A DNA stretch of 64,000 nucleotides from Cenococcum geophilum (GCA_050273025.1 CP158635.1:14074001-14138000), one strand, 5' to 3'. Positions 10,201 through 60,792 are shown, counted from the stretch's first letter. Notes: a model not told the origin generated them from the letters alone. Numbers and translations: made by a program.

Positions 10201-10329
10201 TATATAAAATAAGTAGTAACTAGGGTGTAGATATAAGAGATAGAAGCTCTAAATATCCTAGAGAAAGTAGAAATAGAAGAAGTAAGGAATAAAGGAGAGT
10301 TAAAGGACCCTCGCCGGGGGTCCGCTACC

Positions 10330-13300
10330 TATCTATTATACAGTATAACTACAGCAACACAAACTACCGCCTTATAAGGCCCCTACTAGACAGTCTAGAC
10401 CTAGAGAAATACTATATCCTTGCTATATAAGAGCCGTATTATAATACCTTCACATAATTAATATACTGCCCCCGAGGATTCTAGCTCCTATATAAACCAA
10501 AAGTAGCTATACGTGTGTGCTTTATAATTAGTAAGGCTATTAGCCTATCCTTATAGTTATAGTAGGCAGTTAACCCAAATATTGTAGTTATAACAATCTA
10601 AATATATAGGGGACTGGTACAAATTATTAATGTATATAACCCTAGGGTTAAAGGGGTCCTATAAACAGAGAATATTATATCGGTAATAAGCTTACTAAAA
10701 ACCGAAGGTATAAAGTTTATCCTATTAGGAGATATAAACCTCCACTACCCGCGGTAGGGGGGTATCTATATTGCTGCAGACTAACAGTTAGAGTGCCTAC
10801 TAAGAGCTATAGATATCTGGGGCCTTAAGCTAGCTACCCCCCTAGGAGCAATTATATGGCAACGAGGCACCGCCAAAAGTATAATTAACCTCACATTTAT
10901 AGACAAAGGCCTATACTAGAGACTTAAAAGGTATAACCCTAAAGAAGAATGGGCACTTACCCTAGACTATATCCCTATTTAGATATAGCTAAACCTAGAT
11001 ACTAAAGCGCAATTAAATAGAAAAAGATACGTAATAAGGAAGCTTAAGATAGACAGTTTCCTTAATATAGTTAAACAACAACTCTAAGACCTAGAAGAAA
11101 TCCACCCAATACTAAATAAGCGAGGCCTATTAACTACCCCTAAGGAAATCAACTAAAGACTAGAAAGGATCCAGGCAGCAATTAAAAATAGGCTAAAAGA
11201 GCACTACCTAATCTTAAAACTGGGCCCCTATACGCGATATATATGGTCTATATAATACGCAGTTCTAGTTACCAGCTAATAATAAGTAAGAAGGAAATAT
11301 ATAAGTAGCCACAACCCTAAAGACGAGAGATGATATAAAGACATAAGAAACCAGCTAAAGAATACCCTAAAAAAAGAAGTAAGGAATAACTGGAGACGGT
11401 TTATAAATAAGTATACTTCTAACCCGAGCCTCCCCTATAATAAGGGCCTTTAGGATATAGCGAAATGGGTAAAGAAAAAGGTAGGGCGCTTAGCAGAAGA
11501 CCTATACCTACCACCCTTATAAAGAGTAGGAGAATTATAGGCTATAAATAACAATAATAAGAAGGCAAAGATCCTTACAGAAAGGTTTTTCCCCTAACTA
11601 GCTCTAGTAGACCTTAGTAATATTATAGGCGAAATACCAGTAACTTGCCTACGGGTTAACAGCAATATAATAATAGAGGAAATAGCTAGAATCATTAGCC
11701 GCCTTTTAAATAATATAGTACTAGGACCAGATAGGATTCTAAATAAGGCCCTAAAAACCTATAGGCTACTTATAGCACCTTAGCTTACAGATATAGCTAG
11801 AGCATACTTTGCTATAGGCTACTACCCGCGACTTAAAAGATCTATAACAACGGTTATTCTATAAAAAGAAGGTAAAGTAGATTACTTAATCCTAGGAAGC
11901 TACCGCCCTATTACCTTAAAAAACACCCTTAGCAAGATCTTAGAAAGGGTAATAGCGGAATACATAGCAGACACGGTAGAGGAATATACTTTACTACTAT
12001 AAAGCTAAATAGGGGCAAGAAAGAACCGCTTAACACTATTAGTACTTACGCTACTCGCTACTACTATTAAATCTATATAGGCGATGCGAAAGGACTTTAT
12101 AGTATTAATACTTAGCCTAGATATTAGTGGTGCCTATAACAATATACCCTATAAGCGTCTCCTATATATCCTTAGGGTAAAGGGCTTCCTAAAATGGATT
12201 ATATAATTTATCTAAGGGTTTATAGGCCAGAAAGAAATATTACTAGTCTTTAGCGGATACTAGAGCCCCCCTATTGCAGTTATAATAGAAATACCATAAG
12301 GATTACCCCTCTCGCCTATACTCTTCCTTTTCTTTATAAGCAACCTACTTAACTCCTTTAAGGAAGGGGTAACCTAGGGGATAGGCTTTATTAATAATAT
12401 AAACCTAATTATATACGGGCTAACAGCCGCAGAGAACTGCAGAACACTAGAGAAAGCCTATAATACTTATATAGAGTAGGTAAAATGTTATAGAGTCTAA
12501 TTCTTACTAGAGAAATACCAGCTAATCCATTTTATAAGAAAACGCAACTAATCTATAGATCTCTAGTATATAATTCATATCTAAGGCTTTAGGGGTTAAC
12601 TAGTTTAGGGCCTAAGGGTATTAGGAGTATAGGTAGACAGCAAGCTCTAGTAGAGCGTATATACGGCATAAGCGGCCCGTAAAGGCTAAGCACAGTTTAT
12701 CGCTTTATCTAGGATTATTAATTCTATATAGGGTCTATACTTCTAGAGGTCACACCTACTATATATAGCAGTTATCTGGCCAACTATAATATATAGATCC
12801 AGTATCTAGGCCATTAGAGAAATTAAGAAGGGCCCCCTAAAATCACTCCTTAAACCACTTTAAAAGGTCTAAATAGCCTGCCTCTAGAGTATTATAGGCG
12901 GGTATAAGTGAACGGCCACAGCACTACTTAAGAAGGAATCCAATATTCCCCCCCTATAGTTATATATTAAAGCCGCTGCAATATAAAGAACGTAAAATAA
13001 ACGTAACTCTAATGTTATAAAGTATATTAAGACACGCCTAAGTAAACTATAAAGGGACCCTAGTGTACTCTATAGGAGAACAAACTAACAACCCTAAAGT
13101 AGGAAAGAGATATTAGAGAAATAGGTAAAGAAAGCAGAAGAAGAATAGTGCCGCTTTAGGGCCTAGGCCCATATAGAGGAGGAAGGGAGACGTATAAGAG
13201 GTTAGTAAAGACAACAGTAAGATAGAGAAAGGAGCTAAAGTAGAATATATAAGAACGCCGGGAAACCATCTACTATAATATAATACTAGTTAGACCAACG

Positions 13301-13400
13301 CTAGAAAGGTAAATAGAAGTTAAAGGTATAGAGGCTAACTTAGGCAAGATAAACCTAAGCTATAGTATGGTTAACGCTATAGGGGGTAAATACCTAAGGG
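10330..13400 (+). pseudogene. LINE A2 ORF2 (APE endonuclease + reverse transcriptase)
   Basis: IIQYN ~10335, GDINLH ~10728, SIINLTF ~10878, GPDRILN ~11724, YRPITLKNTL ~11901, SLDISGAYNN ~12114, P*GLPLSPILF ~12294, GFINN ~12384. Confidence 0.88.
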
Positions 13401-14960
13401 CTCCGAGAAGGCCTAATAAAGGTAGAAAATATAATAGCAATACTCTTAAGAATAGGAATAATAGGACTAAAAGATTAGCTTTACTGGGTGGGTGTCCTAG
13501 TAGGTAGCCCAAAATACGAATGTAGCTGGCTAAAATAGACACTAAAACACGTAATACTGCTATACCCCCTACGCACCAATTAAGAAACAATGCTCTTAGT
13601 AGCTAGCATAGAAAACTATAATACACTGCTCTTAATACAAAAAGGCCTCAAGGCGGTCACCTAGTAGCTTATTAGTTAAAATATACTAAATCAGTTCTAG
13701 GTTGCAAGGGAAATAGTAATAGAAGGCAAGGGGGCGAGCAGTAGGTGCCCCCTAGTAACTCTACAGTAGTAGAGTAAAAGTTTGTAATACTAGCGCGTCC
13801 GTAGGCTTGTTACGGCAGCAGTGGTTCCCAAGGAGGTTAAATAGTAAGGTAGTAGAGCACCACAGGCGACTTATAGGCGCTAAGTAGGCGAGTTTTAAAA
13901 GGCGGGGAGATGGATTACAGGGTTTTCTCATTTTCTTAAATAGAGTTTTCTCCCTATATGTAAATAAGGAGTAGTCCGCGTGGGCCTAGTAGGGATCCAA
14001 ATCGGACGTTAAGCAATGAATTATTATTATATACCCTTTAAAAGTCGGCTATAAATGTTATATTTGCTACGTTAAGTCTAATTCTTAATTATCCTAGTCT
14101 TAAGCTTACTATAGCTGTCCATAATAGTCTTCCTACAGGGCATCCTCTCCCTTATATCCCCTGTAACCCTTATATCCCTATACGGTCTAGTAATATCGCG
14201 CGGCGTCACTTTTAGCCCGTTAAGGCTTGGGATAGCTAGCCTAGCCCCCTAGTATTAAAGGTAGGAAATGCTAAAAAGGCACCTACGCCCCCCTAGCTTA
14301 TCGCCTATTATTTCCATTTATATAACCTAGCATGCAGTTATTCCCGCAGCTATTAAGCCCTTATCTTCCATCTCCTATATCTAATGCAGTTTCCTCTCTC
14401 CCACGCCTTATGTATGCTTTAGTGGCAGTTTACGCATTTTATTTAGTCTTAATTTAAGCAGTTTCTTATATTATAGGGGCCTACACAATGGCCGCAGCAC
14501 ACCTATACTGCGTATATAGATTAGGTGTATCCCTATTATATACAGCGGTAGCATTATTCTAGGCGGAGTTTATAGTTATAGAGCCTTACGTTATATATAA
14601 GGCCATTTATAATAATACCTTTTTAGATAAGGAGTTTTTACATTCCTAGTATATATGTGCTAATAATAAGGGAGCTATGCGTTTAACCGGCGTCTCCCTA
14701 GCAAGTCTCTAGCGACCCTTATATTCTTTTATTGTTTTTATCATATACTTAGTTTACATTTTCCTATTAAAGCCATTAGATTTAGGTAATCTCGAGTCCT
14801 AGTATAAGGCGTTCCGTTTATTTTACTATCTTATATATAGTTACTGTATTGTCCGCCTAGCGTCCCTTTTCTACCCTAAGGCTTAGGGGAACCGCTAGGA
14901 CTTCGACTGGGTAATCTTTACAGAGTACTTTTATACCAATACGTTCTCCTAGCCTATCCT

Positions 14961-17900
14961 ATCCATTATATAATATAACTATAGTAATACAAACCACCGT
15001 CTTATAAGGCCCTTACTAGACAGTTTAGACCTAAAGAAATACTATATCCTTATTATATAAGAGCTATACTACAATACCTATATATAATTAATATACTGCC
15101 TTTAAGGATTCTAGCTCCTATACGAACTAAAAGCAGCTATATATATATACTTTATAATTAGTAAGACTATTAGCCTATCCTTATAGTTATAACAGGCAGT
15201 TAATCTAGATATTATAGTTATAATAATCTAGATATATAGAGGACCGGTATAAATTATTAATATATATAACCCTAGGGTTAAAGGGGTCCTATAAACAGAG
15301 AACATTATATTAGTAATAAGCTTACTTAAAACTAAAGGTATAGAGTTTATCCTATTAGGAGATATAAACCTCTACCACCCGCGGTAGGGGGGTATCTATA
15401 TCGCTACTAAATAATAGGTAAAGTACCTACTAAAAGCTATAAACAGCTGGGGCCTTAAGTTGGCTACCCCCCCTAAGTAATTATATGGTAATAAAGATCC
15501 GCCAAAAGTATAATTAACCTTATATTTATAGACGAAGGCCTATACTAGAGACTTAAAAGGTATAACCCTAAAGAAGAATAGGCACTTACCTTAAACTATA
15601 TCCCCATCTAAATATAGCTAGATTTAGACATTAAGGCGTAACTAAATAGTAAAAGATATGCAATAAGGATGCTTAAGGCAGACAGTTTCCTTAATATAGT
15701 TAAATAATAACTCTAAGACCTAAAAGAAATCCACTCGATACTAAATAAGTAAGGCTTATTAGCTACCCCTAAGGAAATTAACTAGGGACTAGAAAGGATC
15801 TAGGCAGTAATTAAAAATAGGCTAAAAGAGCACTGCCTGGTCTTAAGGCCGTGCCCCTATACATAATATATATAGTCCGTATAATGCGCGGTTCTTATAG
15901 CTAGCCAATAATAAGTAAGAAGGAAATACTTAAGTAGCTATAACCCTAAAGATAAGAGATAATATAAAGATATAAGAAACCAGTTAAAGAATACCCTAAA
16001 AAAAAAGTAAGGAATAACTAGAGACGATTTATAAATAAGTATACTTTTAATCTAAGCCTCCCCTATAATAAGGGCCTGTAGGCTATAGCAAAATAGGTAA
16101 AAAAAAAAAGGTAGGGCGATTAGTAGAAGACTTATACCTACTACCCTTATAAAGAGTAGGGGAATTATAGGCCACTAATAATAATAATAATAAGAAGGTA
16201 AAGATCCTTATAAAAAGGTTCTTTCCCTAACTAGCTTTAGCAGACCTTAGTAATATTACGGGTAAAGCACTAGTGACTTACCTATAGGTTAACAGCGATA
16301 TAATAATAGAGGAAATGGCTAGAACTATTAGCCGCCTTTTAAATAATATAGTACTAGGTCTAGATAAGATTCTAAATAAGGCCTTAAAGACCTATAGACC
16401 ACTTATAGCACCCTAGCTTATAAATATAGCTAGAGCATACTTTACTATAGGCTACTACCTATAACTTAGAAGATTTATAATAACGGTTATTCTATAAAAA
16501 GAAGGTAAAGCAAACTACTTAATCCTAGGAAGCTACCGCCCTATTACCTTAGAAAACACCCTTAGTAAGATCTTAGAAAAGGTAATAGCGGACTATATAG
16601 CAGACACGGCTAAGGAATACGCCCTATTACTATAGAGCTAAATAGGGGTAAGAAAGAACTGCTTAATACTATTAGCACTTATACTACTCGCTGCCACCAT
16701 TAAATCTATATAGGCGATGCGAAGGGATTTTATAGTATTAATGCTTAGCCTAAATATTAGTGGCGCCTATAACAACGTACCCTACAAGCGTCTCCTATAT
16801 ATCCTTAGGGTAAAAGGCTTTTTAAAATAGATTATATAATTTATCTAAGGGTTTATAGGTTAAAAAGAAATATTACTAGTCTTTAGCGGATACTAAAGCC
16901 CCCCTATTGTAGTTACAATAGGAATACTATAAGGATTACCCCTCTCGCCTATACTTTTCCTTTTCTTTATAAGCAACCTGCTTAATTCCTTTAAAAAAGG
17001 GGCAACCTAGGGAATAGGCTTTATTAATAACACAAACCTAATTATATACAGGCTATTAGCCGTAGAGAATTACAGAATGCTAGAGAAAGCTTATAACACC
17101 TATATAGAATAGGCAAGACAATATAGAGTTTAATTCTTACTAGAGAAATACTAGCTAATCCATTTTATAAGAAAACGCAAACAATTTATAGATCTTTAGC
17201 ATATAATCCGCATTTAAGGCTTTAGAGGTTAACTAGTTTAGGGCCTAAGGGTATTAGGAGTATAGGTAGATAGTAAGCTCTAGTAGAGCGCATATACGGC
17301 ATAAGCGGCCCATAAGAGCCAAGTATAGTATATTATATTATCTAGAATCGTTAATTTTATATAGGGCCTATGCTTCTAGAGGTCACGCCTACTATATATA
17401 GCAGTTGTCCGGCTAACCATAACATATAGGTCCAGTATTTGGGCCATTAGAGAATCTAAGAAAGGCCCCCCTAAGTCGCTCCTTAAACCACTCTAAAAGG
17501 TCTAAATAGCCTACCTCTAGAGTATAATAGGCGGATATAAGCGAACGGCCATAGTACTGCTTAAGAAGGAAGCCAATATCCCCCCCCTACAACTATATAT
17601 TAAAGCCGCTGCAATATAAAGGGCCTAAAATAAACGCAACTCTAATATTATAAAGTATATTAAGATACGCCTAAACAAACTATAGAGGGACCCTAGGGCG
17701 CCATATAGGAGAATAAACTAATAACCCTAAAGTAGGGAAGATATATTAGAGAAACAGGTAAAGAAAGTAGAAGAAAAATAGTGCTGCTTTAGGGCCTAGG
17801 CCTATATAGAGGAGAAATGGAGACGCGTAAGAGGCTAGTAAAAATAATAATAAGAGAAAAAAAGGAGCTAAAGTAGAGTATAAAAAAACGCTAGGAAACT

Positions 17901-18650
17901 ATCTACCGTAATATAATACTGGTTAGACCAACGCTAGAGAGGTATATAGAAGTTAAAGGTATAGAGGCTAACTAAAGCAAGAGGAACCTAAGCTGTGGTA
18001 TAGTTAATGCTATAGGGGGTAAATACTTTAGGGCTCTAAGAAGGCCTAATAAAGGCAGAAAATATAATAGCAATACTCTTAAGAACAGGAATAATAGGAC
18101 TAAAAGACTAGCTCTACTAGGTGGGTATCTTAGTAGGTAGCCTAAGATGTAAATATAGCTAGCTAAGACAAACACCAAAATATATAATACTATTATACCC
18201 CTTACGCACTAACTAAGAAGTAATACTTTTAGTAACTGGCATAGAAAACTATAATATACTGCTCTTAATATAAAAAGGCCTTAAGGCGGTTACCTAGTGG
18301 CTTATTAGCTAAAATATACTAAACTAGTTCCGGGTTATAAGGGAAATAGTAATAGAGGGTAAGGGGACGAGTAATGGGCGCCCCCTAATAACTCTATAGT
18401 AGTAGAGTAAAGTTTGCAATACTAGCGCGTCTATAGGCTTATTACGGCAGTAGTGGTTCCTAAGGAGGTTAAAAAGTAAGGTAGTAGGAGCACTATAGGT
18501 GACTTATAGGCGCCTTATAGGCGCCTTATAGGTAAGTTCTAAAAGGTAGGGAGATAGATTACGGGGTTTTCTCCCTATATGTATATAAGGAGTAGTTTGC
18601 GTAGGCCCAATAGGGATCCAAATTAGATATTAAGCAATGAATTATTATTA
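14961..18650 (+). mobile_element. LINE family A copy A3, ORF2 + 3' UTR + (TTA)n tail
   Basis: Colinear with A2 10330-14027; ends AAGCAATGAATTATTATTA. Confidence 0.9.
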
Positions 18651-19858
18651 TAAAGCTAAATCTGGTCTATAGATTATGTCTTTTTATACTAAATAAGATC
18701 TATTTAGGTAGTCCTTATATCCTTATAGGATTAAAGGTCTTAATTTCTTCTTTTAAAAGCTTAAAGCCTCCTTCTCCTAAAAAAGGTAGGGTAGGAACCC
18801 TATAGGCTATAATTTAAACATATAGTTATAGATTTTGTTCTCTTTAAAAGGTAAAGCAGTTATGCTAGATTTCCTTATATTTAACTAGGAAATCCATATT
18901 ATACTCTTTTATAGTTATAAAGAGAATATTTTATTTTCCTTTAGTTCTAGCTATAGATGCTAAAACTAGTTTTTCTACTTATAGTTTTAATGTAAATAGT
19001 TAATTAACTTTATTTTATATAGAGAAGGTATCTAAATATTAGTCCTTTTAGTCTATAATTAGGACTAGCTTTCTTTTTTATAGCTACTTTTTCTTACTTC
19101 CAGTGGAAGTAGAAGGAGTAGAAAATAGTAGTAATAAGGAGGGTAAAGAGGATAAAGTAGGGAGGTCCTTTTTTAGCCTCTTTATATAGGTTTCTTTAGT
19201 AAAGGCTACCTTCTTATAGAGAGCTCTTGCTTCTTTAACTAGTCCTTTTAAAATATCTTTTATCTTTTTTTTTCCTTTTATAAAGGGATTTTCTCCTATT
19301 AAAATACTATGTGTATAGTCCTTTAGCTATTTAACTTATTCCTTTTTATCTTTTTCTTTTTCTTCTTTTAGCCCTTTATAGGCCTAGGTTAAGCTATCTA
19401 AAGCCTTTTATAGGTGTTATTTTAGAGAAAGGGGAGAGAAAGATATACTAGGTATACTAGCCGTAAAAGTTCTTATTTTAGTTATCTTTTTTATAGGTTT
19501 TTAGTTTTTTTTTTTTAGTAGAAGACTAAGGATGTTTTTTCTCTCCTATCCTAAATAGGCTAGGAGAAGGAGAAGAGCTAGAAAAAGTAAATATAGATAT
19601 AGACTTATCATTACTTATTTTTATAGAAAGTTTTTTTAAGCCTACTAGGCTTTAGCATTTTATATCTTATAGGGGGGGTTTCTTAGTTTTTACTATCCTT
19701 ATACCCTTTCTTCTTACTAATCCTACTAAAAGATTTCTAGGGAGATTAGGCTAAGAAGTAGTAGAGAAACTAGCCCCTATTTTATAGTTTTTAGTATTAG
19801 TAGTAGTGGTAGTAGTTTTAGTATTCCTATTTATGCCTTACTTATAAGCTAGGGCCAC

Positions 19859-22021
19859 ACCTTTCACCACACATGCAACCTTACCAAAAGGTAGCGCCAC
19901 ACTTCAAAACTTACGCATACCCATCTTACCATCAAAAACAATCGATTTTCCAACTTTTAAGACCTAATTCTTACTGCCTAGCGAGCTAGAGGTGGATTTA
20001 TTTATCATTTTACCCCCTTTACCCTAACAGAAAATTCTTCTTAGGGGTGGTCCTAGCTTATAAGCGAGGCACGGACAGGAACACCAAAACCAAATACCAA
20101 AACCACAGAATATAGAGGCTAGATTTTCTACTACCTTTTAGCCTAATCTCCCCAGAAATCTTCTAGTAGAATTAGTAAGGAGAAAGGGTATAAGGGTAGT
20201 AAAAACTAGGAAACCCCCCTATAAGATACAAAATGCCAAGGCCTAATAGGTCTAAAAAAAAAACCTCCTATAGAAATAAGTGATGAGGATTCTATATCTA
20301 CTTTTTCTCCCCCTTCTCCTTCCCCTGGCCCATTTAGGACAGGAGAAAAAAGAGAACATCCTTAGTCTTCTCCTAAAAAAGAAAACCAAAAACCTGTAAA
20401 AAAGACAATAAAACCAACGACTACTACGGATAGTACGGCTAATATACCTTCCTATTCCCCTTCCTATTCCCCTTCTCCAGAATAATATCTAAGCTTCGCC
20501 CTAGAAAGCCTAACCTAGGCCTGTAAAGGGCTAGAAGAAGAAAAAAAAAAAAGAGAAGAAAAAAAAGAACAAGTTAAATAGCTAGTGTACTATACACGAA
20601 GTATCCTATTAGGAGAAACCCCCTTTACACAAGAAGAAGAAGAAGAAGAAGAAAAAGAAAAGGAAAAGGCAAATAAGGTCCTAAAAGGACTAGTAGAAGA
20701 AGTAAAAGCTCTCCGTAAGGAGGTAGCCTCTACTAAAGAAACCTACGCAGAGAGACTAAAGAAGGACCTCCCTACTTCGTCCTCTCTACCCTCCCCACCA
20801 CTACCATCTCCTACCCCTTCTCCTTCTAGTAGGAGTACTACTTCTACTAGAAGTAAGAAAAAGCAGCTATAAGAAAGGAAGCTAGTCCTAATTATAGACG
20901 AAAAGGACCAACCTTTAGATACCTTCTCTATACGAAACAAAGTTAATTAACTATTCGTATCAAAACTGCAGGTAGAAAAGCTAGTGCTAGCGTCTATAGC
21001 TAGAACTAAAGGAAAACAAAATATTCTCCTTATAATTACAGAAGAGTATAATGCAGATTTCCTAGTCAAGTATAAGGATATTTGGTATAACTGCTTTACC
21101 TTTTAAAGAGAACAAAAACTAGAACCCTGGGTTCAAATTATAGCCTATAGGGTTCCCACCCTACCTTTTCTAGGAAAGGGAGGCTCTAAGCTTCTAAAAG
21201 AAGAAATCGAGACCTTTAATCCTATAAGGATACAAGGACTACCTAGATAGATCTCATCTAGTAAAAAAAGACACAATCCATAGACCAGATTTGGCTCTAT
21301 AGTTTTTACTATAGAGAACGAAGAAAAAAGACAAGAAATCCTCAAGTAAAAAGAGATATTAATTGCAGGTACAGCTACTAAGGTAGTAAAATACCTCGAA
21401 GTCTCTCCTACTACGCAGTGTATAAGCTGCCAAAAATTTGGCCATATAGGAGACAGGTGCTCTACTAGAGCCTGCAGATACTATGCAGCTGCACATTTAT
21501 CTAAAGACCATTCCTATTCTACCTGTATAATAACAGGCAAGCCTTGCCAGCATACCACCCCTCTTTACATTAATTGTAAAGAAAAACACTTTACTAATAG
21601 TAAAGACTGCAAGACTCTTAAAGCAGCTAAACTAGTACGTAAAGAAGATTCTATAGAAGAATAAAACAGATAGGATTCTAAAAGGAGGCAACTCCTACTA
21701 GGCTCTTAAAAAGATATTAGAGAGTAAAAGGACAGAATAAATTGCAAAAGGACAGGGACAGGTGTTAGGATTTCATAGTTTTTCCTACTGTTTTCTTATT
21801 CCCTAGTAGTTGTAGGAACTTAGGGTTTACTAAGGAACTATAAACTCCTAGTTTAGGAGTTTATAAACTACTAGGACATAGCTACTAGTACATATTAAGC
21901 TGCCTAGAAAGAATTCATATATATAGAACTATAGCGCCATAGCCTAGAGGCTGCATGCGCAGTATTATACGTAGTATAATACAATCGGATATAAAAAAAT
22001 ATATATATATATATATATAAA
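19859..22021 (+). mobile_element. Gag-only non-autonomous LINE derivative C2 (~2.16 kb, complete)
   Basis: 13-bp TSD AAGCTAGGGCCAC at 19846-19858 and 22022-22034; A/(TA)n tail; one gag ORF, no EN or RT. Confidence 0.88.
20112..21664 (+). pseudogene. C2 ORF1/gag-like protein with zinc knuckles
   Basis: TTQCISCQKFGHIGDRC...AAAHLSKDH..STC..TGKPCQH...INCKEKH..NSKDC at ~21410-21610; stop TAA 21662-21664; ORF 20585..20872 is a fragment; start approximate. Confidence 0.8.
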
Positions 22022-22223
22022 AAGCTAGGGCCACCCTTAGAGAAATTTTTTCTATTAGGAAAAGGGGGTAAAATAATAAATAAATCCACCTCTGGCTCGC
22101 TAGGCAGTAGGAATTAGGTCTTAAAAGTTAGAAAATTATTTGTTTTTAATAGTAAGATAAGTATACGTAAGTTTTAGAGTATGGCGCTACCTTTTGGTAA
22201 GGTTATATATATAGTAAAGGTTT

Positions 22224-24315
22224 TATATATAACCTTACTAAAAGGTAGTACCACACTCTAAAACTTACGCATACCTATTTTACTATTAAAAACAATTGAT
22301 TTTCTAACTTTTAAGACCTAATTCCTACTGCCTAGCGAGCCAGAGGTGGATTTATTTATTATTTTACCCCCTTTTCCTAATAGAAAAAATTTCTCTAAGG
22401 GTGGCCCTAGCTTATAAGTAAGGCATAAATAGGAATACTAAAACTACTACCACTACTACTAATACTAAAAACTATAAAATAGGGGCTAGTTTCTCTACTA
22501 CTTCTTAGCCTAATCTCCCTAGAAATCTTTTAGTAGAATTAGTAAGAAGAAAGGGTATAAGGATAGTAAAAACTAGGAAAACCCCCCTATAAGATATAAA
22601 ATGCTAAGGCCTAGCAGGCTTAAAAATAAACCTTTTATAAAAATAAGTAATAATAAGTCTATATCTACATTTACTTTTTCTAGCCCTTCTCCTTCTCCTA
22701 GCCTATTTAGGATAAGAGAATTTTTTTTAAGTCTTCTACTAAAAAAGAAAACTAAAAACCTATAAAAAAAGATAACTAAAATAAGAACTTTTATGGCTAG
22801 TATACCTAGTATATCTTTCTCTCCCCTTTCTCTAAAATAACACCTATAAAAGGCTTTAGATAGCTTAACCTAGGCCTATAAAAGACTAAAAGAAGAAAAA
22901 GAAGAAGATAAAAAGGAATAAGTTAAATAGCTAAAGGACTATATACATAGTATTTTAATAGGAGAAAATCCCTTTATAAAAGGAAAAGAAAAGATAAAAA
23001 AATCTTAAAAGGACTAGTTAAAGAAGCAAGAGCTTTCTATAAGAAAGTAGCCCCTACTAAAAAAAACCTATGTAAAGAGGCTAAAGAAGGACCTCCCTAC
23101 TTTGTCCTCTCTACCCTCCTTATTACTATTATTTCCTACTCCTTCTACTTTTACTAGAAGTAAGAAAAAGTAGCTATAAAAAAAAGCTAGTTTTAATTAC
23201 AGACTAAAAGGACTAATTTTTAGATACCTTCTCTATATAAAATAAAGTTAATTAACTATTTATATTAAAACTATAAGTAGAAAAACTAGTTTTAGCATCT
23301 ATAGCTAGAACTAAAGAAAAATAAAATATTTTCTTTATAACTATAAAAGAGTATAATGCGGATTTCCTAGTTAAATATAAGAAAATCTGGAATAACTGCT
23401 TTACCTTTTAAAGAGAATAAAAACTAGAACTATATGTTTAAATTATAGCCTATAGGGTTCCTACCCTACCTTTTTTAGGAGAAGGAGGCTCTAAGCTTCT
23501 AAAAGAAGAAATTAAGACCTTTAATCCTATAAGTATATAAAAACTACCTAAATAGATCTTATTTAGTGTAAGAAGACACGATCTATAGACTAGATTTAGC
23601 TTTATAGTTTTTACTATAAAGAATAAAGAAAAAAGATAAGAAATTCTTAAGTAAAAAGAGATATTAATTGCAGGTATAGCTACTAAGGTAGTAAAATACC
23701 TTAAAGTCTCTCCTACTACGCAGTATATAAGCTGCTAAAAATTTGGCTATATAGGAGATAGGTGCTCTACTAGGGCCTATAAATACTATGCAGCTATATA
23801 TTTATCTAAAGACTATTCCTGTTCTACCTATATAATAATAGGTAAGCCTTACTAGCATACTACCCCTCTTTGTATTAATTATAAAGAAAAACACTTTACT
23901 AATAGTAAAGACTGTAAGACTCTTAAAGCTGCTAAACTAGTACGCGAAGAAGATTCTATAGAAGAATAAAACAGGTAGGATTCTAGAAGGAGGTAATTCC
24001 TACTAGGCTCTTAAAGAGATATTAGAGAGTAAAAGAATAGAAATAAATTATAAAAGGATAGGGATAGGGGTTAGGATTTCTTATATTTTTTCTTACCATT
24101 TTCTTATTCCCTAGTAGTTATAGTATCTTAGTATTTTACTAGGAAACTATAAACTCCTAATTTAGGGGTTTATAAACTACTAGGACATAGCTACTAGTAT
24201 ATATTAAGTTGCCTAGAAAGGATTTATATATATAGAACTATAGCGCTATAGCCTAAGGCTGCATGCGTAGTATTATACGTAGTATAATATAATAGATAAT
24301 AAAGGAATTAAAAAA
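22224..24315 (+). mobile_element. Gag-only element C copy C3
   Basis: Colinear with C2 over its full length including the gag-stop/3' junction; A-rich tail. Confidence 0.88.
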
Positions 24316-27269: not shown

Positions 27270-30200
27270 TAGACCTACTAGGAGCCCTTAATGCCTATAT
27301 AAACGTTATTAATAAACGGTATAATAATATACTACGCCTAATACTAAAGCTAGCCCCCCGATATAATACGGCAACCCTATAAACGTTTACTAAGTTATTA
27401 TCTTAGCCTAAGCACCCTAACGCCATAGATATTAACACTAGAACCCTAGAGTACGCCCTACTAGGGTCCCCTAAATAAGAAAGACGCATTAAGCTAGGCC
27501 TTTACTTTAAATGCGGAAGTAAGGACTACATCTTAAAATACTATCTCGTCCCATTATTTACGCCCTAAAACGATTTATAAACGGCTAATATTAGTAACTA
27601 TTTATCGCGCCTAAGCTTAAGCCATTAATTATAGCCCTTATCGTCTAGCTCTAGCCTATTGTTTAGTAAGCACTATTTATAAAAATTAAGCTCTAACTAA
27701 TATCCTATAAGAACCCCGCCCTAATTACCTTTTAAAAAAAAAGGTCTTAAAGTTAAGTCGCTCTCTAGGACGGCTCTGCTATAGGATTTCGCTAAACGCA
27801 TTTAATATTACAATCTTTAACTTTTAGGACTGTAGTATAACCATTAACTACTGTCTTTAGTAGAATAGTTAATAGGCTAACGCTTAAATCCTAATTAATA
27901 TAGGAGCTAGCGACATAGGATTTATTAATAAGATCTTTGCGTAAGATAATAGTTTTACCCTAACTTCCCTTAACCGGCATATTAACGCATTTGGATTTAA
28001 TAGTAAACGCACTATCTTAGGCCGTATTACCTACGTAGTAGCCCTAAAACTCTAATACCTAAACTATAAAGAACTAATTAAGCCTTTCGTTACTACCCTA
28101 GGTCATATATTAATCCTTAAACAGCCCTAAATAAAGCTATATAAGGTAACTATTAATTAGAAAAATCTTAAGCTTCTATTTACCGCCTCCTATTATAAGC
28201 AGAAGTGCCTTACTACTTACTACTTAGACCTAGAACTAAAATCTAAAAAATCTACTAGAATTCACTAGTCTAAAATTTCTATAACTGTTTACCCTATACC
28301 TAAGGAATTTACCAGATTCTACTAGTATAAGAATTCTACTGACATCTACTAAGGATCTAAAAACTCTACTAAATTCTATAAGTTATTACTAAGCATTATA
28401 CCGCCCCAAGCTAAGTAAAAGCTTAAGCTTAATATACGAAAATACTAGAAGGACTGGTATTTTACTATAAAAAGGATTCTTAAAGAACCCGAACCTAAAT
28501 CTAATATTAACTCCATACCTAATACCGAACCTAAACCTGAATAAGAAACTATAAATAATCTAAGTAAGCTCGGCACCCTAGATATCCGCATAATTAGAGC
28601 TACCCCGCTAGCGCGACTTGCTAAGAAACCCGAATATATAATCTTTATTATTACTATAGCTAATATTAAAAAGGCCTTAGCACCGAAGAAGTATACTAAC
28701 CCTGCTACGAAGGTACTAGTAGAGTACTATAACCGCCTAGAGGTATTCTTATGGAAGGAAGCTAATAAGCTACTAAAACACCAATCGTACGACTATAAAA
28801 TTATACTTAAAGAAGAAAAGCAGCCTAGATTTAGACCCTTATATAGGATATCTTAAAACAAACTCTAAGTGCTTTAAAAGTATTTAGATAAGAACCTAAG
28901 TAAAGCATTTATTAGAGTAAGCTCGTCGCCTATAGCCGTATTAGTAACCTTTATTAAGAAACCTAGCGGCAGTTTATGCTTCTATATAGACTACTAAGCT
29001 CTTAATACTATTACCGTTAAAAACTAATATCCGATTCCGTTAATATAGGAGACACTAAACCGACTAAGTAAGGCTCGCTACTATATAAAGCTTAATATTA
29101 TCTCTATATTTAACCAAGTAAAAGGAGATAAATAGCTTACTTCATTTTGTACTTAGTATGGATTATTTAAATACTTAGTAACGCTATTTAGCCTCGCAAA
29201 TGCTCCGAGCTTGTTTTAACAATACCCTATATCCCTACCTAGACATTTTTATACTACTTATATTAATAACGTCCTAATATATAGTAATAACCTAACCGAA
29301 TATTGGAAATACGTTAACTTTATCCTATAAGCCCTATATGGAGCTAGTCTATAATTAGATATAGATAAATACGAGTTCTATAAAACGGAAGTCCTATACC
29401 TTAAACTCCTTATTTTTATTAATGGTATATAAATAGACCTAAAGAAAGTTAAAGTAATTATAAACTAGTAAGAACTTAAGAACGTTAAGGATATAAGAAC
29501 CTTTATAAGATTTACTAATTTCTACTAATAGTTTATTAATAACTTCTCCGCCTTAGTTTTACCCCTTATTACTCTAACCTAAAAGGATAAAGCTTTTATC
29601 TTTAATAAAGAATATAAAAAGGCCTTTACTTATCTAAAGGTTATATTTACTACTATACATATACTCTAACACTTTAACTTAGAACGAATAAGTGTTATAA
29701 AAGCTAACTCATCTAATTACATTACTAGAGGTATTCTGTCTTAATATAATAAAGAAGGAGTATTGCACCCTATAGTATACTTCTTAAAACGACTAAGCCT
29801 TAATAAATATAATTATAAGATCTATAATAAAGAATTGCTAGCTATTATTAGATACTTTAAGTAATAGTAACCTAAACTAGAAGGCGCCGGATTTCTAACT
29901 AAGGTCCTTAGCAACTATAAGAACCTATAGTATTTTATAACCACAAAACAGCTAAGTTATCGTTAGGCCCGCTAGTTAGAATATCTATTACGCTTCTAAT
30001 TCTTAATTACGTACCGCCTAAGTATTTAAGGTTAGAAGCCTAATACCTTAACCTAATATTTATAAGACACACTAGCCCTAAAAAAAGCGCGCTTTTACTA
30101 AAACCAGACTCTGCTTTGCCCTAAACTATTTAACCCTCTTACTAAAGACCTTATAGTATACGTCCTTAAAATAACTAATCGACCAATTAAATAGAATATA

Positions 30201-32077
30201 GTTAATAAATACCTAAATAACGAGTTTATCTAAGAAACGCTTAAGCTTATTTAAGATAGCGTTAAACGCTTTAAAAAAGATTTCTTTAAGTAAATATAAA
30301 GCTTATAGAAACCGCTTATATTACTAAAACTATCTAGTTATCCCTAATTATAATAAGCTTAAGCTTAAGCTCCTTAAACACGTATATAATCTACCTATTA
30401 CCGGCTACCTAGGCTAAGGAAAGACCCTAAAACTACTCTAATAGGAGTATTACTAGCTAAATATGTATAATACGACATAAAGGTATATCTTTAGCTACTA
30501 TACCTACTAATAAGCTAAAGCCTTATATAAGACGTATAATGGTATTTTAAAGCCACTGCCTATTCCGGACTAAAGATGGAAGGATATCTTAATTAACTTT
30601 ATTATTAACCTCCCTAAAAGTAGAGGCTGTACGAACATTATAGTAATTATAGACCGACTATCTAAGATAAGACACTTAATCGCCTATCCCGATATATTAA
30701 CGCTTACTATTGCCTAACTATTCTTAGATTATATATAGAAACTTCACAGACTCTCTAAAACGATTATCTCTAATAAAGGTAGCTAGTTTATCTTAGCATT
30801 TTAGAAAAAACCAACTACCTAACTCTGTATTAAAGCACTATTATTTACCGCGTACTATTTAGAAACGGATAGTTAAACGGAACGCGTAAATGCTATAATA
30901 GAATAGTATATTTAGATATACACGTTATATTTATAAGATAACTAGATTAACTGGCTTATATTTACCAAGTTTACTATAAATAATTCTATCTCGGAAACTA
31001 CGAAAGTCTCCCTATTTCTAGCCAATTACGGCTAATACCCATAAATAGGTTTTAAACCCTTTAGTAATGTTCCTTGCCCCGCTTATTACGCCTTATAAGT
31101 TATAAAAGTAAATAAATTTATAGAAAAGATAGAGGAACTATAACAGTTCCTTACTAATAAGATAATATGGGCTTAATCTGTCTATAAATCCGTAGCGAAT
31201 AGGAAATAAACCCTAGCACTAGTTTACTAAATTAGTAATTTCGTCTAGCTAGATATAAGAAATCTAAATACGAAACGACCTACTAAGAAACTTAATTAAA
31301 AGAATACTGGCCCTTATAAGGTTAAAAAGGTTATCTCTCCTTATGCCTACTAACTAAAGCTCCCTAATACAGTTAAAATCCACCCTATATTCTATACGTT
31401 AGTCCTCTGCCCTACTGCCCCTATATTAGACGCCCTACCTAAACAAATATAGGATCCTCCCCCACTAGTTAAGGTGGACGGTAAGGATAAGTACTTTATT
31501 AAAAGAATTAATAATATTAAGTACGATAAACAGAAACGCCAATATATATATCTTATAAAGTGGAGAGACTATACTAAGCCCTTATAGGAACCCGTTAACT
31601 CTATAGGACTTATATAAGCCGTAGAAAACTTTTATAAACTCTACTTAGAATTACTATAGCCCTATTTCGTAGAAGCTTAAGTTTAAATAGGGGGGTACTA
31701 TTATAGGATACCCCCGTAACACCTTATACACATCTACTTATTTCTACTAACTTAGTAACTAAAGACTAACCACAAAACGGCAATTTAATAGCAATCCGCG
31801 GTAATTTAACGGCAACTTGCTATATTTTACTATATTCCACCAAGTTCTACTAAGTTCTACTAAATCCTGCTAAGTTTTACCAGGACTACTACCTAAATCC
31901 TATTCTACTTTGTATACGTATTAACTAAGTAACTAAGTCTATAATATGTACCCTTTCTTCCCGTTTTCCTACCTTCTTTCCTTATATAACGTCTTAACTT
32001 CTTACACAGTTTATATATATAGCTTAATAATATTTACCTTGCTATATATTATCGCCGCTTATACTCACTCCGTAACA
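27270..32077 (+). mobile_element. Chromovirus-type Ty3/Gypsy family E copy E1 (gag 3' part, PR-RT-RH-IN-chromodomain, PPT, 3' LTR)
   Basis: INIGASDIGFIN ~27895, FIKKPSGSLCFYIDY ~28950, YINNVLIYS ~29259, HVYNLPITGYLG ~30379, YLIKWRDY..L*EP ~31550; PPT ATAGGGGGGTAC. Confidence 0.9.
31699..32077 (+). repeat. 3' LTR of E1
   Basis: Homologous to the E2/E3 LTRs; ends CCGTAACA. Confidence 0.9.
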
Positions 32078-32682
32078 TATACTTAAAAGGTTCTATATAG
32101 GAGGAAGAAGAAATCTCCTTAGCTTCTAAAGCTAGAGGAGAAATCCCCTTTATATAATATAATATAGGGGAAATATAAGAAGTATAGCAAACCCTACTAG
32201 AAATAGGATTTAGGAGAAAAATAGATATTATTCTAGTACAGGAACCTAGTACCTGGAAAGATAGGCAAAAAGGATCCTACTTTATTTTATATCCTGTATT
32301 TAACCTTATCCTCCCTAGTAATCTAGCTATTTATCCTAGGGTAGCTATTTATATAAGGAAAACTGGTTCTAATATTCTATAATATAGAAATAGGGAGGAT
32401 ATCTATAAAGATACAGATACTATAGCACTAGAAATCTATAGCTAATTTAAAAGATTTTTACTGCTTAATATTTATAACAAGAGATAACCAAACAAGAACT
32501 TTAGAACCTAAAGAAATAGTATAAGTATTATCTTTAGAGCTATTCTAGAAATAGAAATAGACCTCCCTTTTATACTAATAGGAGACTATAACCTATACTA
32601 TATATAGTGGAATGCACTAGCGAGGAATTTAACTAGAGAGGCTAAAGAACTAGTAGACTAGCTAGACAAATATAACTGCTAA

Positions 32683-43966: not shown

Positions 43967-44030
43967 CCTTTACGGCAGGCGTTTTCTTAGGTAAAGGCTA
44001 GGTCACGGGCCCGGATATCCTACTAGTAAG

Positions 44031-44400
44031 TGTCACGGAGTGAGCACAAGCGGTGATAATATATAGCGAAGTAGGTATTATTAAGCTATGTACATAAACT
44101 GCGTGATAAAGTCAAGACGTTGCGTAAGGAAAGAAGGTAGGGAAACGGGAAGAAAGGGCATATATCGTTGACTTGGTTGCTTGGTCAACACGTACATAAG
44201 CAAAATAGGGTTCAGGTCGTGGTCCTGGCAGAACTTAGCAGAATTCGGTAGAACTTGGCAGAATATAGCAGAATGCCATAGATTGCCGTTAGATTGCCAT
44301 TAGATTGCCGTTAAATTACTATTTCGCGGTTAGTCTCTAATTACTAAGTCGGTGGAAACAGGTAGACGTGTATAAGGTGTTACGGGGGTGTCCCATAACA
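44031..44400 (-). repeat. E2 3' LTR with internal 10- and 11-bp tandem repeats
   Basis: TGTCACGG...CATAACA; (GAACTTGGCA)n and (AGATTGCCGTT)n; PPT complement GTACCCCCCC at 44401. Confidence 0.93.
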
Positions 44401-45311
44401 GTACCCCCCCTTTAAACTCGAGCTTCTGCGAGATGGGGCTGTAGTAGTTCTAGGTAAAGTTTGTAAAAGTCTTCTGCGGCTTATATAAGTCCTATAGAGT
44501 TAACAGGTTCCTATAAGGACTTAGTAAAGCCTCTCCATTTCATAAGATATATATATTGGCGTTTCCGTTTATTATACTTAATATCGTTAATTCTTTCAAC
44601 AAAGTACTCGTTCTCACCATCCACTTTAACTGGTAGGGGAGGGTCTTATATCTGTCTAGGTAGGGCGTCTAATACGGGGGCAGTAGGGCGGAGGACTGAC
44701 GTATAGAATACGGGGTGGATTTTAACCGTATCGGGGAGCTTCAATCGGTAGGCATAAGGAGAGATAACCTTTTCAACCTTATAAGGGCCAGCGTTCTTCC
44801 AATTAAGTTTCTTAGTAGGTCATTTCATATTTAGATTTCTTATATCTAGCCAGATAAAATCACCAATTTAGTAGGCCGGTGCTAGGGTTCGTTTCTTATT
44901 CGCTGCGGCTTTATAGACAGATTAAGCCCATATTATCTCATTGGTAAGAAACTGTTGTAGTTCCTCTATCTTCTTTACGAATTTATTTGCTTCTGCGACT
45001 TATAAGGCGTAATAAGCGGGGTAAGGAACATTACTAAAGGGTTTAAAACCCATTCGTAGGTGCTAGCCGTAATTGGCCAAAAACGGGGAGACTTTTATAG
45101 TTTCCGAGACGGAGTTATTTACAGTAAACTCGGCAAATGCGAGCCAGTTAATCTAGTCATCCTATAAATACGATATATATATCCGAATATACTATTCCAT
45201 TATAGCATTTACGCGTTCCGTTTAGCTATCCGTTTCTAGGTAATATATAGTAGACAACAGTGCTTTAATATAAAGTCGAGTAGTTAGTTCTTTCTAGAAT
45301 GCTAAGATAAA

Positions 45312-45635
45312 CTAGCTACCTCTATCAGAGATAATTGTTTCGGGGAGTCCGTGGAGTTTCCATATATAATCTAGGAATAGTCGGGCGACGGCAGGCGTTG
45401 ATATATTGGGGCAGGCAATCAAGTATCTTATTTTAGATAGTCGGTCTACAACTACCATAATATTCGTGCAGCCTCTACTCTTAGGAAGGTCAACAACAAA
45501 GTTAATTAAGATATCCCTCCATCTTTGGTCCGGAACAGGCAGCGGCTTCAAAAGACCGTTATACATCTCATGCGAGGCTTTAGCTCGTCGGCAGGTATAG
45601 CAGCTAGAGACGTACCTTCGTGTCGTGTTATACAT
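45312..45635 (-). pseudogene. Retrotransposon integrase fragment (E2)
   Basis: End of the H2C2 finger plus start of the rve core; flanked by RIP stops. Confidence 0.9.
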
Positions 45636-48600: not shown

Positions 48601-49630
48601 AGAGGTAGAAGCTACTTCCACATTTAAAGTAGAGGCCTAGCTTAATGCATCGTTCTTATTTAGAGGACCCTAATAGGGTATATCCTAGGGTCCCAGTGTT
48701 AATATCCATGGCGTTAGGGTGCTTGGGTTAAGACAATAACTTAGTAGACGTTCGCGGGGTTATTATATTATACCAATAAACGGGCTTCAGTATAAGGCGT
48801 AGTATATCATTATACCGTTTATTAATAACATTTACACAGGCGTTAAGAGTTTCCGGAAGGTCTACGCCTATTAGGGAGGTTTTTAGTTTAGGGCTTAAGG
48901 ACTTAACGAGGCTGTTAATTAGTGCGGAGTCATTCCAGCCTATTTCCTTTGCGTAGCGGTTAAATTCGGAGAAGTATACTAGGAAACTTTTCTTTTCTTA
49001 AGTTATTTAGTTTATCTTTCTTTAAGCGGTAGCTTGGCGGTTCGGGTTACCGTACATAGCTTCAAGAAGTATAACTAGGCTTTATACTAAGTTTAGTTAG
49101 AAAGGTTTAATAAGGTTAGCTGCGTCTCCTCCTAGTCGACTTAGGGCGTAATAGAGTCGGTTAGCTTTAGTTAGGTAGCGGTTAGTATTACCGGTTAGCT
49201 TATTTTTAAGCCGGCTTAAAAATAACCAAAGCTCTCGTTGTTTACCGGTAAATACTAGGGGGTCTAGTAGTTTCTCAGATCGTTTCAGTGCAGTAGTCGG
49301 CTTTATAGGGTAAGTAACTACTACTAATTCGGGGCTTGCGTTCCGCGTATTCATTTCCGGAGATAGCGTTCGGTCTTAGGGCCTTAATATAGGCATCTTA
49401 AGGATACGGACTTCTTCTTAAAGTGCTTCAATCAATTATTATTATCGTGCTTCTTATTCGGCTTACTATTAAGTTAAAGTGGCTTAGTGCTATGCAAGGG
49501 CGTCCGTAAAGGACTTCTATATACCTGCTAATTGTTCTTAAAGTGCAGCCATAATAGCGTCGGCCGTTGTAGGGGCTTCAGGGTCGTTCTGCATTTTCGG
49601 AGGGTAGTGTAAGTTTTTAACGCAACGTAG

Positions 49631-50000
49631 TGTTACGGAGTAAGCACAAGCGGTAATAATATATAGCGAAGTAGGTATTATTAAGCTATATACATAAACT
49701 ACGTAATAAAGTTAAGACGTTGCGTAAGGAAAGAAGGTAGGGAAATGGGAAGAAAGGGCATATATCGTTAACTTAGTTGCTTGGTTAACACGTGCATAGG
49801 CAAAATAGGGTTTAGGTCGTAGTCCTAGCAGAACTTGGCAGAATTCAGTAGAACTTGGCAGAATATGGCAGAATGCCGTAAATTGCCATTAGATTGCCAT
49901 CAGATTGCCGTTAGATTGCTATTTCACGGTTAGTCTCTAATTGCTAAGTCGGTGGAAACAAGTGGACGTGTGCAAGGTATTACGGGGGTGTCCCGTAACA
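49631..50000 (-). repeat. E2 5' LTR
   Basis: Matches 44031-44400 with transition-type differences. Confidence 0.93.
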
Positions 50001-54499: not shown

Positions 54500-54951
54500 T
54501 GTTAATTTGCGTAAGCGGAGGTCGGAGGACGACAGGGTGAACAATGTAGTGAAGTAAGTGAAGTGGATAAACTTGATGCAATTGATGATGTCTATCTACG
54601 GGGGATCGAGTCTCTATATACCTGGAAGACCCTAGTTCCAGAACGTCTACGTTCCGTCTCGTATTCTGATACGTTACCTAATACACTAGGTAATACGTTA
54701 CCTAACACACTAGGTGATACATTACCTAATACACTAGGTGATACGTTACCTGATATACTAGGTAATACGTTACCTAATACACTGGCTAATACACTAGCTA
54801 ATACTATCTAATACACTAGTTGATACACTAGTTAATACACTAGTTGATACACTAGCTGATACCATCTAATACACCGCGTAAAGCCGTAGGGTTCTTCCAG
54901 GGTGTTCTTATGTAATGCTTACATAAGCAACATCAGAGATTATCATTGACA
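54500..54951. mobile_element. Solo LTR-like insertion I (452 bp) with an internal 12-bp tandem array
   Basis: TGTTAAT...ATTGACA termini; TSD ATAGC at 54495-54499 and 54952-54956. Confidence 0.8.
54667..54875. repeat. 12-bp minisatellite (GATACACTAGCT/TAATACGTTACC variants)
   Basis: Read directly; produces the spurious TLPNTLG ORF. Confidence 0.85.
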
Positions 54952-57333: not shown

Positions 57334-57526
57334 TATAACGGCTTAAACTATTAAACAAATGTCTCGATAGAGACTTAAATAAATGCTTGCAAGAAGAAGC
57401 GAACGAATGTTGTATTATAAAGATATTAAGCTAAGGAGCAAGAGAAGGTGGTGAGGCCACGTCCATATACACATGCTAAGTCCTAAGCGAACCCCTAACT
57501 AGGTGACGCGCCCCAGCGCCGTTATA
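57334..57526. mobile_element. Solo LTR H (193 bp)
   Basis: TATAACGGC...GCCGTTATA (RIPed TGTAACGGC/GCCGTTACA); TSD GTTAA at 57329-57333 and 57527-57531; interrupts E3 RT. Confidence 0.85.
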
Positions 57527-60428: not shown

Positions 60429-60792
60429 ATAAGGCCTTAAAGACCTATAGACTACTTATAGCTAGAGTATACCTTACTATAGGTTACTACCTACGACTTA
60501 GAAGATCTATAACAACGGCTATTCTATATATAAAAAGGTAAAGTAAATTACTTAACCTCAGAAAGCTACCGCCCCATTACCTTAGAAAATACCCTTAATA
60601 AGATCTTAAAAAGGGTAATAGTAGACTATATAGTAGATATAGTTAAGGAATATACCCTACTACTATAAAGCTATATCGGCAAAATATGGTACCCTACCAA
60701 TGGCCTCAATGGTTAGTGGTTGACGTAATTGGCGCGCAGTTGAGGGCATTTAGCAACTCGACCGACTAGCCTATGTCATGTTTTTTTAACAC

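Follow-up and report, generated by a model that had tools for sequence, protein, structure and literature searches.

The DNA analysed here, called the window below, is a stretch of 64,000 nucleotides from Cenococcum geophilum (GCA_050273025.1 CP158635.1:14074001-14138000), and coordinates are counted from its first letter. It is an AT-rich cluster of nested repeats in which the GC content varies from 0.27 to 0.45 across 2-kb bins. In the region 18651-24315, self-BLAST of the window and a MAFFT alignment identified three copies of one 2.1-kb unit, which we named C1, C2 and C3. These units carry a single gag gene that corresponds to the first open reading frame (ORF1) of a long interspersed nuclear element (LINE), together with short remnants of ORF2. 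A truncated LINE, named D, is found in the same window (52122-56060, plus strand), and it is with the D type of element that the C units share their ends.

C2 (19859-22021, plus strand) is a complete gag-only unit, composed of a body (19859-21988) and a tail. The body begins with the 5' untranslated region (UTR, 19859-20232), followed by the gag gene (20233-21664), in which ORF1 is fused to the first codons of ORF2 and is closed by a stop codon TAA (21662-21664) made at a deletion junction. Downstream are the last 12-13 codons of ORF2 (21665-21701), which end at the ORF2 stop TAG (21699-21701), and the 3' UTR (21702-21988), whose last ~120 nt are a stem-loop-rich module, as predicted, common to D. 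The tail, A7(TA)nA4, occupies positions 21989-22021. C2 is nested in C1, which lies on the minus strand and is split into two pieces. The distal piece (18649-19858) contains part of the 5' UTR and the initial two thirds or so of gag, with 93.5% identity to C3 (22397-23606); the 5'-terminal piece (22022-22222) is placed head to head with C3 and is the continuation of the distal piece in the alignment. A 13-bp sequence, AAGCTAGGGCCAC, is found at 19846-19858, where it is itself C1 sequence, and again at 22022-22034. When C2 is taken out, positions 22222-22022 and 19858-18649 rejoin as a single inverted C1, which together with the 13-bp repeat means that this is a true target-site duplication and that C2 is an insertion into C1. 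At its other end C1 is cut at 18649, where it adjoins a different repeat family. The adjoining copy is the second of two direct copies of a 3.7-kb repeat (10328-14031 and 14958-18652, 86% identical), and it stops exactly at the C1 truncation (18649-18652).

C3 (plus strand, from ~22223, or 22231, to ~24320) is also a complete gag-only unit and a relative of C2 by alignment, but heavily altered by repeat-induced point mutation (RIP). Its gag gene (22601-23969, GC 0.28) has 24 stops and is followed by the ORF2 remnant up to TAG 24004-24006, by the 3' UTR, which ends at ~24297 or, in another reading, at 24293, and then by an A-rich tail that has degenerated. Identity is 81.8% between C2 and C3 (2139 columns) and 93.5% between C1 and C3. 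Five in-frame indels in gag (6, 12, 6, 24 and 18 bp) are common to C1 and C3 as against C2. A first-pass annotation, made from the sequence of the window, had described C2 as complete, with its 13-bp duplication and tail, and had pointed to gag indels between C2 and the other two copies; both descriptions are borne out by the alignment. It had likewise listed C3 as a complete unit of ~2.1 kb, which stands, with the reservation that no target-site duplication can be read for C3 since its 5' flank is C1. The 5' ends of C1 and C3 meet exactly, forming a 392-bp palindrome (22022-22413, 92.9%) which is either two head-to-head insertions or an inverted duplication. Self-BLAST of the C2-C3 region gave no repeat inside one unit besides the C copies themselves, and no terminal repeats.

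A protein search with the C2 gag as query (X at stops) gave 24 relatives, 14 of them with 441-480 aa and 60-83% identity; intact gag relatives have 459-480 aa. Contigs were scanned with a 15-protein alignment, which yielded 272 relatives, of which 79 loci (661 kb) were kept. The census of copies given below is thus one of metagenome contigs, perhaps from related species. C2 and C3 each contain one long gag-like frame. There are 10 in-frame stops in the gag of C2, each of which is Q or W in the relatives, as well as a frameshift near an A run at ~20266. Counts of frameshifts from the nucleotide alignment were not used, as they are unreliable in the low-complexity N-terminal half (intact ORFs scored 7-14). 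Three Cys/His knuckle motifs were recognized by eye and are invariant in the 15-protein alignment. Pfam gives no family for gag and no zf-CCHC match even at an expect value (E) of 0.1, while one neighbouring atlas cluster has zf-CCHC on 29% of its members. No endonuclease or reverse transcriptase domain was found in C2 by Pfam in three frames. The earlier description of one zinc-knuckle gag frame lacking both enzymes is sustained for the single frame and the missing domains; the zinc knuckles are putative. The AlphaFold2 model of gag (15-row alignment) had a mean pLDDT of 40.4 and a pTM of 0.22, too poor for a fold search, and the gag profile gave no match below E 0.37 to sequences of the PDB. 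One source names the C-type gag protein P0001 "cell division septum initiation protein DivIVA", and full-length ORF2 relatives are named "ribonuclease HI"; these names are prokaryote-style mis-annotations of eukaryotic transposon genes in metagenomes.

Of the 230 differences between C3 and the intact copy L006, 184 are C>T or G>A in the direction of the window copy, CpA being the most frequent context, and 81 of 147 differences between C2 and its less mutated relative L020 are of these two kinds. Such an excess, commonest at CpA, is the pattern of RIP, and all three window copies are RIP-mutated. With 10 stops in C2, 24 in C3 and C1 truncated and split, the three copies of the window are dead.

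Outside the window the unit is widespread. C2 aligns to all 79 loci, and in dozens of them as a single collinear match over positions 1-2125 with 78-91% identity, which indicates a 2.1-kb gag-only family rather than a local accident. Considering the window and the 79 loci together, 46 of 51 gag 3' ends are of the C type, three are of the D type, one is different and one has no room for the call; a gag lies upstream of 52 of 54 occurrences of the 3' UTR. Both ends were present in 21 copies, four of which have too little flank. Among the 17 testable copies, nine have a sequence of 11-14 bp immediately ahead of the 5' end that is repeated without mismatch right behind the A-rich tail, while mismatched flank pairs, used as control, reach 11 bp in 2 of 272 cases; some other copies have imperfect duplications by eye. 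The flanks of the copies are mutually unrelated, and the tails, A(n), (TAAAA)n or (TA)n, begin right after the same last bases. From these duplications, tails and flanks it follows that C has spread by retroposition. The junction is therefore not confined to the local copies, and it recurs in different flanks with duplications of its own. Moreover C2 and C3 fall in different well-supported gag subfamilies, their nearest relatives being in metagenome contigs (92% and 88% identical, respectively). C has diversified into subfamilies, and the view of the first-pass annotation that this is an amplified and diversified family, and no one-off deletion, is confirmed by the junctions, the independent duplications and the tree.

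LINE D is cut at both ends and RIP-mutated, and is 84-88% identical to three metagenome loci (L072, L073 and L001). What is left of it runs from the end of the endonuclease region through RVT_1 (53242-53916, Pfam) and a region resembling RNase H (55153-55560) to the TAG that closes ORF2 (56023-56025). The initial ~35 nt of the 3' UTR follow before the cut at ~56060, where D meets a long terminal repeat (LTR) element. A 12/24-bp tandem repeat array of ~8-17 copies (54669-54874) is placed inside D ORF2, between the reverse transcriptase and RNase H, and ~450 bp at this site are absent from L001. The stretches that follow gag in C2 and C3 (21672-21727 and 23977-24041) match the end of D ORF2 (55995-56063) with 82-83% identity over 60-69 nt (E 2e-8 and 3e-12, within the window), as had been noticed from the sequence alone, and the similarity extends right to the cut of D.

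With both ends of D cut away, its ORF1 and its 3' UTR cannot be seen from the window alone, and the comparison of a full D with C that had been suggested at first pass was made with the metagenome loci. Four of these (L072, L073, L074 and L021 (minus strand)) have a more distant ORF1 followed by ORF2. Their ORF1s are 64-71% identical in protein to P0001 and 72-81% identical in nucleotides to the C gag; L021 is 91.6% identical to L072. The ORF2 of L072 has Exo_endo_phos_2 and RVT_1 (Pfam), and L001 has the end of ORF2 with RNase_H, a 345-nt 3' UTR and an A-rich tail. Together with the domains of the window D they give the order AP-type endonuclease, reverse transcriptase, RNase H. On the basis of this order and the fungal host D is provisionally labelled Tad1-like (Tad1/I-type). 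The nearest protein clusters are fungal, most often of Ascomycota. The D 5' UTR (L074) is collinear with that of C copies with a long 5' UTR from the same first bases (ACCTTTCACCACACATGC...), and L001 has a 345-bp 3' UTR that stays collinear with that of C until both end in the same bases, so the 3' region of C is related to that of a D-type element. The metagenome loci thus supply what the window lacks, namely a related ORF1, the same 5' UTR and a collinear 3' UTR. The D-type parent can be described as follows: ~680 nt of 5' UTR come first, then ORF1 (473-479 aa, three Cys/His knuckles) and ORF2 (~1345 aa), and the element closes with a 3' UTR of ~345 nt and an A-rich tail. Its total length of ~6.5 kb, like the ORF2 length and the ~3.95 kb deletion (~98% of ORF2) described next, is an arithmetic estimate from locus overlaps.

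C differs from D-type elements by two lesions. In the D type, ORF1 ends in ...AAKLV(C/Y/H)Q and the overlapping ORF2 starts inside it (ATGTCAATGA), reading MSMSTSLEG.TQEEEE.... In C, 5 bp are missing at the ORF1 stop, which is thereby removed, so that ORF1 continues into the first ~14 codons of ORF2 (...STSLEGSMEE). After GAAGAA the sequence then jumps to the last 12-13 codons of ORF2, and ~3.95 kb are gone. ORF2 ends with ...GS(L/I)EGGNSY in D and the remnant is recognisable in C from ...LEGGNSY. The new gag stop TAA stems from the 3' end of ORF2 read out of frame, and the ORF2 stop lies within 40 nt of it. The resulting tail ...S(M/V)E(E/K) is present in 11 of the 15 aligned database proteins, and both lesions are present in all 46 aligned C-type junctions. 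Two further deletions in the 5' UTR, relative to the C form with a long 5' UTR, are found in the window copies and many others. There is no GT..AG in the D sequence at either break point, which argues that the deletion is not splicing; a reading of C as spliced LINE copies (SpIRE-like) was rejected on the same ground. One sub-lineage of C (L010, the 225-521 copy of L003, and L002) carries a 4-bp insertion just before the ORF1/ORF2 fusion point. The resulting frameshift brings gag to a premature end, for example in protein P0003 with its terminus ...KLVYA.

A gag tree was built from 55 near-complete copies, minus four longer than 1500 nt (L003, L029, L062 and L076), plus three D-type ORF1s. The three D rows are split from the 51 other rows, which are called C by exclusion, by a branch with 100% SH-aLRT support. 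As the tree was rooted on the D rows it cannot by itself prove a C clade, and it is the split taken together with the two lesions in every C-type junction that establishes a single origin. We conclude that C derived once from a D-type LINE.

Five C gag frames of 458-473 aa are intact (L004, L006, L007, L011 and L065), all collinear through the junction. The ratio of non-synonymous to synonymous substitution rates (dN/dS), a test that the first-pass annotation had proposed, was estimated by the Nei-Gojobori method. It is 0.22-0.37 in all 10 pairs of intact C frames at a dS of 0.22-0.39, with bootstrap upper bounds of at most 0.53. Between C and D it is 0.22-0.36 (dS 0.62-0.83), and between D-type frames 0.29. 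A parsimony count on the tree (codons 195-459) gave 243 synonymous, 191 missense and 20 nonsense changes on the internal branches of the C clade, and 559, 545 and 78, respectively, on terminal branches (N/S site ratio 3.58, Fisher p 0.027). Since all copies share the junction, the divergence of gag postdates the loss of ORF2, and these substitution patterns indicate that purifying selection kept gag as a coding sequence after that loss.

The part of C that is most like D is its 3' terminus. Over the distal 122 alignment columns of the 3' UTR (43 C rows and a single D row), D and C are 93.5% identical and C copies among themselves 92.8%, whereas the identity of D with C is 73% and 63% in the proximal parts of the 3' UTR and 77% in gag nucleotides. 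RNAalifold predicts a series of hairpins in the distal 3' UTR, including a 9-bp terminal hairpin. In the predicted stems 98.3% of cells are paired and 10 pairs change on both sides; shuffles give 4.8 such pairs (a value as high in 1 of 500), and sliding the partner gives 0-5. This covariation is suggestive only, because the alignment from which it is read also yielded the structure, its rows are related to one another, and G-C pairs can become A-U through RIP.

Sequencing runs containing L004 belong to 17 studies (root and soil metagenomes, fungal isolates), six rows being recorded as RNA, and four runs were examined. One RNA run with raw reads has 177 reads with at least 90% likeness over the 5' UTR and gag, nearly all of them first mates on the minus strand. 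In most stranded libraries a first mate on the minus strand stands for sense RNA. Sequence of the gag family is transcribed, and the reads are too sparse at the junction to establish a C-type transcript. In three RNA runs a different upstream sequence is joined to the last ~100 nt of the C/D 3' UTR, with loose ends at position 1991 of L004 (L004:1985-2095 corresponds to window 21880-21988). Relative to the body, the depth of the 3'-terminal bin is 10-100 times greater in RNA contigs and ~3 times greater in the DNA contigs of one isolate. The upstream sequence at these loose ends has no match in the window or the 79 loci; it may belong to another non-autonomous element that shares only the 3' module.

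The explanation that in our judgement probably accounts for these observations as a whole is that C is a family of ORF1-only, non-autonomous retroposons, derived from a D-type LINE, which has kept its own gag and borrows a D-type ORF2 protein in trans. The reading made at first pass, of an element that keeps its own ribonucleoprotein protein and takes ORF2 from elsewhere, is thus largely supported. In such a cycle the RNA of C would start from a promoter in the 5' UTR that is common to D, and would be coated or packaged by C's own ORF1 protein. The D-type ORF2 protein would then recognise the shared, structured 3'-terminal module of ~120 nt and copy C into new sites by target-primed reverse transcription, giving the duplications of 11-14 bp.

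Several points weigh against this explanation, and most of our doubt about the whole picture concerns whose enzyme is used and whether gag is required. Mobilisation by the D ORF2 protein is something we infer from the shared 3' module, for which a single D-type 3' end (L001, n = 1 on the D side) was available, and the G-C to A-U double changes in its predicted stems can come from RIP on both strands. No intact full-length D was seen whole among the loci, the ORF2 of L072 being open over 897 aa to the end of its contig. The best full-length ORF2 match in the database has 53% identity to L072 over 97% of the query and another match 57% over 43%, although the lack of a closer match says little, as the partial ORF2 of L072 is itself absent from that database. 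The metagenome contigs need not be from the species of the window, the best gag identity to C2 being 92%. The 46-to-3 ratio of junctions is not a measure of abundance, because it was a gag query that retrieved the loci, and their ranking followed resemblance to a C-type protein; in flanks outside this selection, C and D fragments are about equally frequent. On the side of selection, the pairs used for dN/dS were chosen for being intact, and the spectrum of mutations is biased by RIP. That nonsense changes (20) occur on internal branches shows that the tree counts are disturbed by parallel RIP or the copying of dead copies. Regarding RNA, the junction bins (1729-1944) have a depth of 0.15-1.44, and the contigs of the other runs are too short to bridge the junction.

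Of the other explanations, the one that survives best is that C amplifies passively, as a deletion derivative which, in the manner of a short interspersed nuclear element (SINE), is copied in trans, its gag frame being a relic that is unneeded for movement. Non-coding, internally deleted LINE derivatives do amplify, for instance RIME from ingi, and most C copies carry stops, only five of ~51 near-complete gag copies being intact. Nevertheless dN/dS is as low in every intact pair as in the D-type ORF1 pair, at a dS of up to 0.39 that was reached after loss of ORF2, and the gag indels between subfamilies are multiples of three. We regard a passive gag as unlikely.

Slightly less likely again is that C is mobilised by an autonomous LINE outside the sampled D lineage, for example a closer parent. 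The synonymous divergence between the C and D ORF1s (dS 0.62-0.83) would fit this, as would the fact that none of the loci yielded an autonomous element whose gag falls within the C clade, the only extra candidate, L021, being of the D type. The loose ends in three RNA runs also point to another element that shares only the last ~100 nt. Against these points stand the terminal 122 columns, where D is as much like C as the C copies are like each other, the 5' UTR and both termini that C and D have in common, and the D fragments that accompany C both in the contigs and in the window.

It could also be supposed that gag was kept as a co-opted host or lifestyle gene family and not for transposition. 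A precedent is the EKA family (homologues of AVRk1 and AVRa10) of Blumeria graminis, multi-copy fungal sequences derived from LINE ORF1; according to the part of that work used here, the EKA candidates are ORF1 copies, in degenerate LINEs, truncated by a stop before the nucleic-acid-binding domain and read as co-opted effectors (PMC4641428). Pieces of fungal LINE ORF1 can therefore be co-opted, and purifying selection alone is silent on who benefits. C as an EKA-type fragment was nevertheless rejected, since the C gag spans the whole D ORF1, including the knuckle region that EKA candidates lack. Moreover, as far as that part of the EKA account goes, it includes neither a defined ORF2-deletion junction nor a self-propagating gag-only element, whereas C has the whole ORF1, both UTRs, a tail and target-site duplications. 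C copies lie in RIP-mutated repeat clusters, are numerous, and form subfamilies typical of the master lineages of transposons. Co-option thus seems very improbable to us.

Still more improbable is that C forms arise repeatedly from D by RNA splicing, of the kind that yields spliced integrated L1 copies, or by recurrent deletion, with no self-propagating lineage. The short similarity on either side of the break (the GAAGAA and GAAGGAGG contexts) might favour recurrence, but the break has no GT..AG and the separate 5-bp deletion is common to 46 of 46 junctions. In addition, the D rows are split from all other rows with full support, and gag-only rows differ by a dS of up to 0.39. That the three window copies are merely the product of local duplication or rearrangement, as the C1/C3 palindrome and the unreadable duplication of C3 could suggest, has almost nothing left in its favour, since it is already refuted for C2, which lies inside C1 with its duplication and tail, C2 and C3 have closer relatives elsewhere in their different subfamilies, and dozens of copies are found in unrelated flanks.

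A further proposal, that we put forward only tentatively and consider possible rather than probable, is that D supports layered parasites on one reverse transcriptase. These would be the long-lived, non-telomeric, gag-only C and a highly transcribed element sharing only the last ~100 nt. Under this proposal C would have kept its own ribonucleoprotein protein under selection through a dS of ~0.4, and it may have more intact genes than its autonomous partner.

The remaining repeats of the window are of other kinds. The LTR retrotransposon at 44029-50003 has direct terminal repeats of 375 bp (44029-44403 and 49629-50003, 91% identical), and related copies are placed at 27270-32083 (inverted) and at 56060-60433, the latter truncated where it adjoins D. 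Blocks of diverged tandem repeats, seen as self-matches offset by ~80-260 bp, occupy 61000-63030.

Among known systems, C resembles HAL1 (half-L1) of mammals in keeping ORF1 and the LINE ends while lacking endonuclease and reverse transcriptase. HAL1 comes from the L1 clade. Elements of that clade lack an RNase H domain, and their ORF1 protein has a coiled coil, an RNA recognition motif (RRM) and a C-terminal domain (CTD). The parent of C, in contrast, is a fungal LINE with an RNase H domain and a knuckle-type ORF1. Moreover some codons survive in C from both the start and the end of ORF2, and C has its 3' module in common with its partner. C was rejected as a member of HAL1 proper, given the RNase H of the partner ORF2 and the fungal nearest clusters, and is better described as an analogue.

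C is also comparable to the HeT-A-type elements of Drosophila. TAHRE or TART is the source of ORF2 for these elements. They belong to the Jockey clade and are, in the part of the source drawn on here, gag-only LINE relatives dependent on the ORF2 proteins of related families, in which ORF1-only lineages can give rise to new ORF1-only lineages (PMC13534243). The likeness is that C is a diversified gag-only group beside a full-length relative with the same UTRs. HeT-A-type elements, however, form head-to-tail telomeric arrays devoid of target-site duplications, whereas C is interspersed, with duplications of 11-14 bp, non-telomeric, and from another group of LINEs in another kingdom.

RIME and ingi of trypanosomes are a pair in which the former is an internally deleted LINE derivative. 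In SINE/LINE pairs, as described in the portion of the source relied on here, the non-autonomous partner carries the 3' end of the LINE, which is recognised by the LINE reverse transcriptase (PMC5786205). The terminal ~120 nt that C shares with D at 93.5% are similar in this respect. SINEs and RIME encode no protein, whereas C encodes a gag of 459-480 aa under purifying selection. No description of a fungal ORF1-only LINE was found in the full-text literature as judged by titles and the openings of abstracts, with Repbase, Dfam and subscription journals outside this scope, so a prior description is possible.

ORF1-only derivatives of LINEs are few, those documented here being the mammalian HAL1 and the telomeric HeT-A-type elements of Drosophila. 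C is an independent, interspersed case in a fungal LINE bearing RNase H, with an exactly defined origin, selection on gag and a 3' module conserved with its partner. For genome annotation it should be kept in mind that C units of 2.1 kb are easily mislabelled, or mistaken for 5'-truncated or degraded LINEs. If D does support layered parasites, then outside mammals C would be the first documented case of an interspersed ORF1-only LINE lineage, and a tractable system to learn why some parasites of LINEs keep ORF1. The family makes two questions testable in a microbe, namely whether a LINE parasite needs the ORF1 protein in cis and what it is that the reverse transcriptase recognises.

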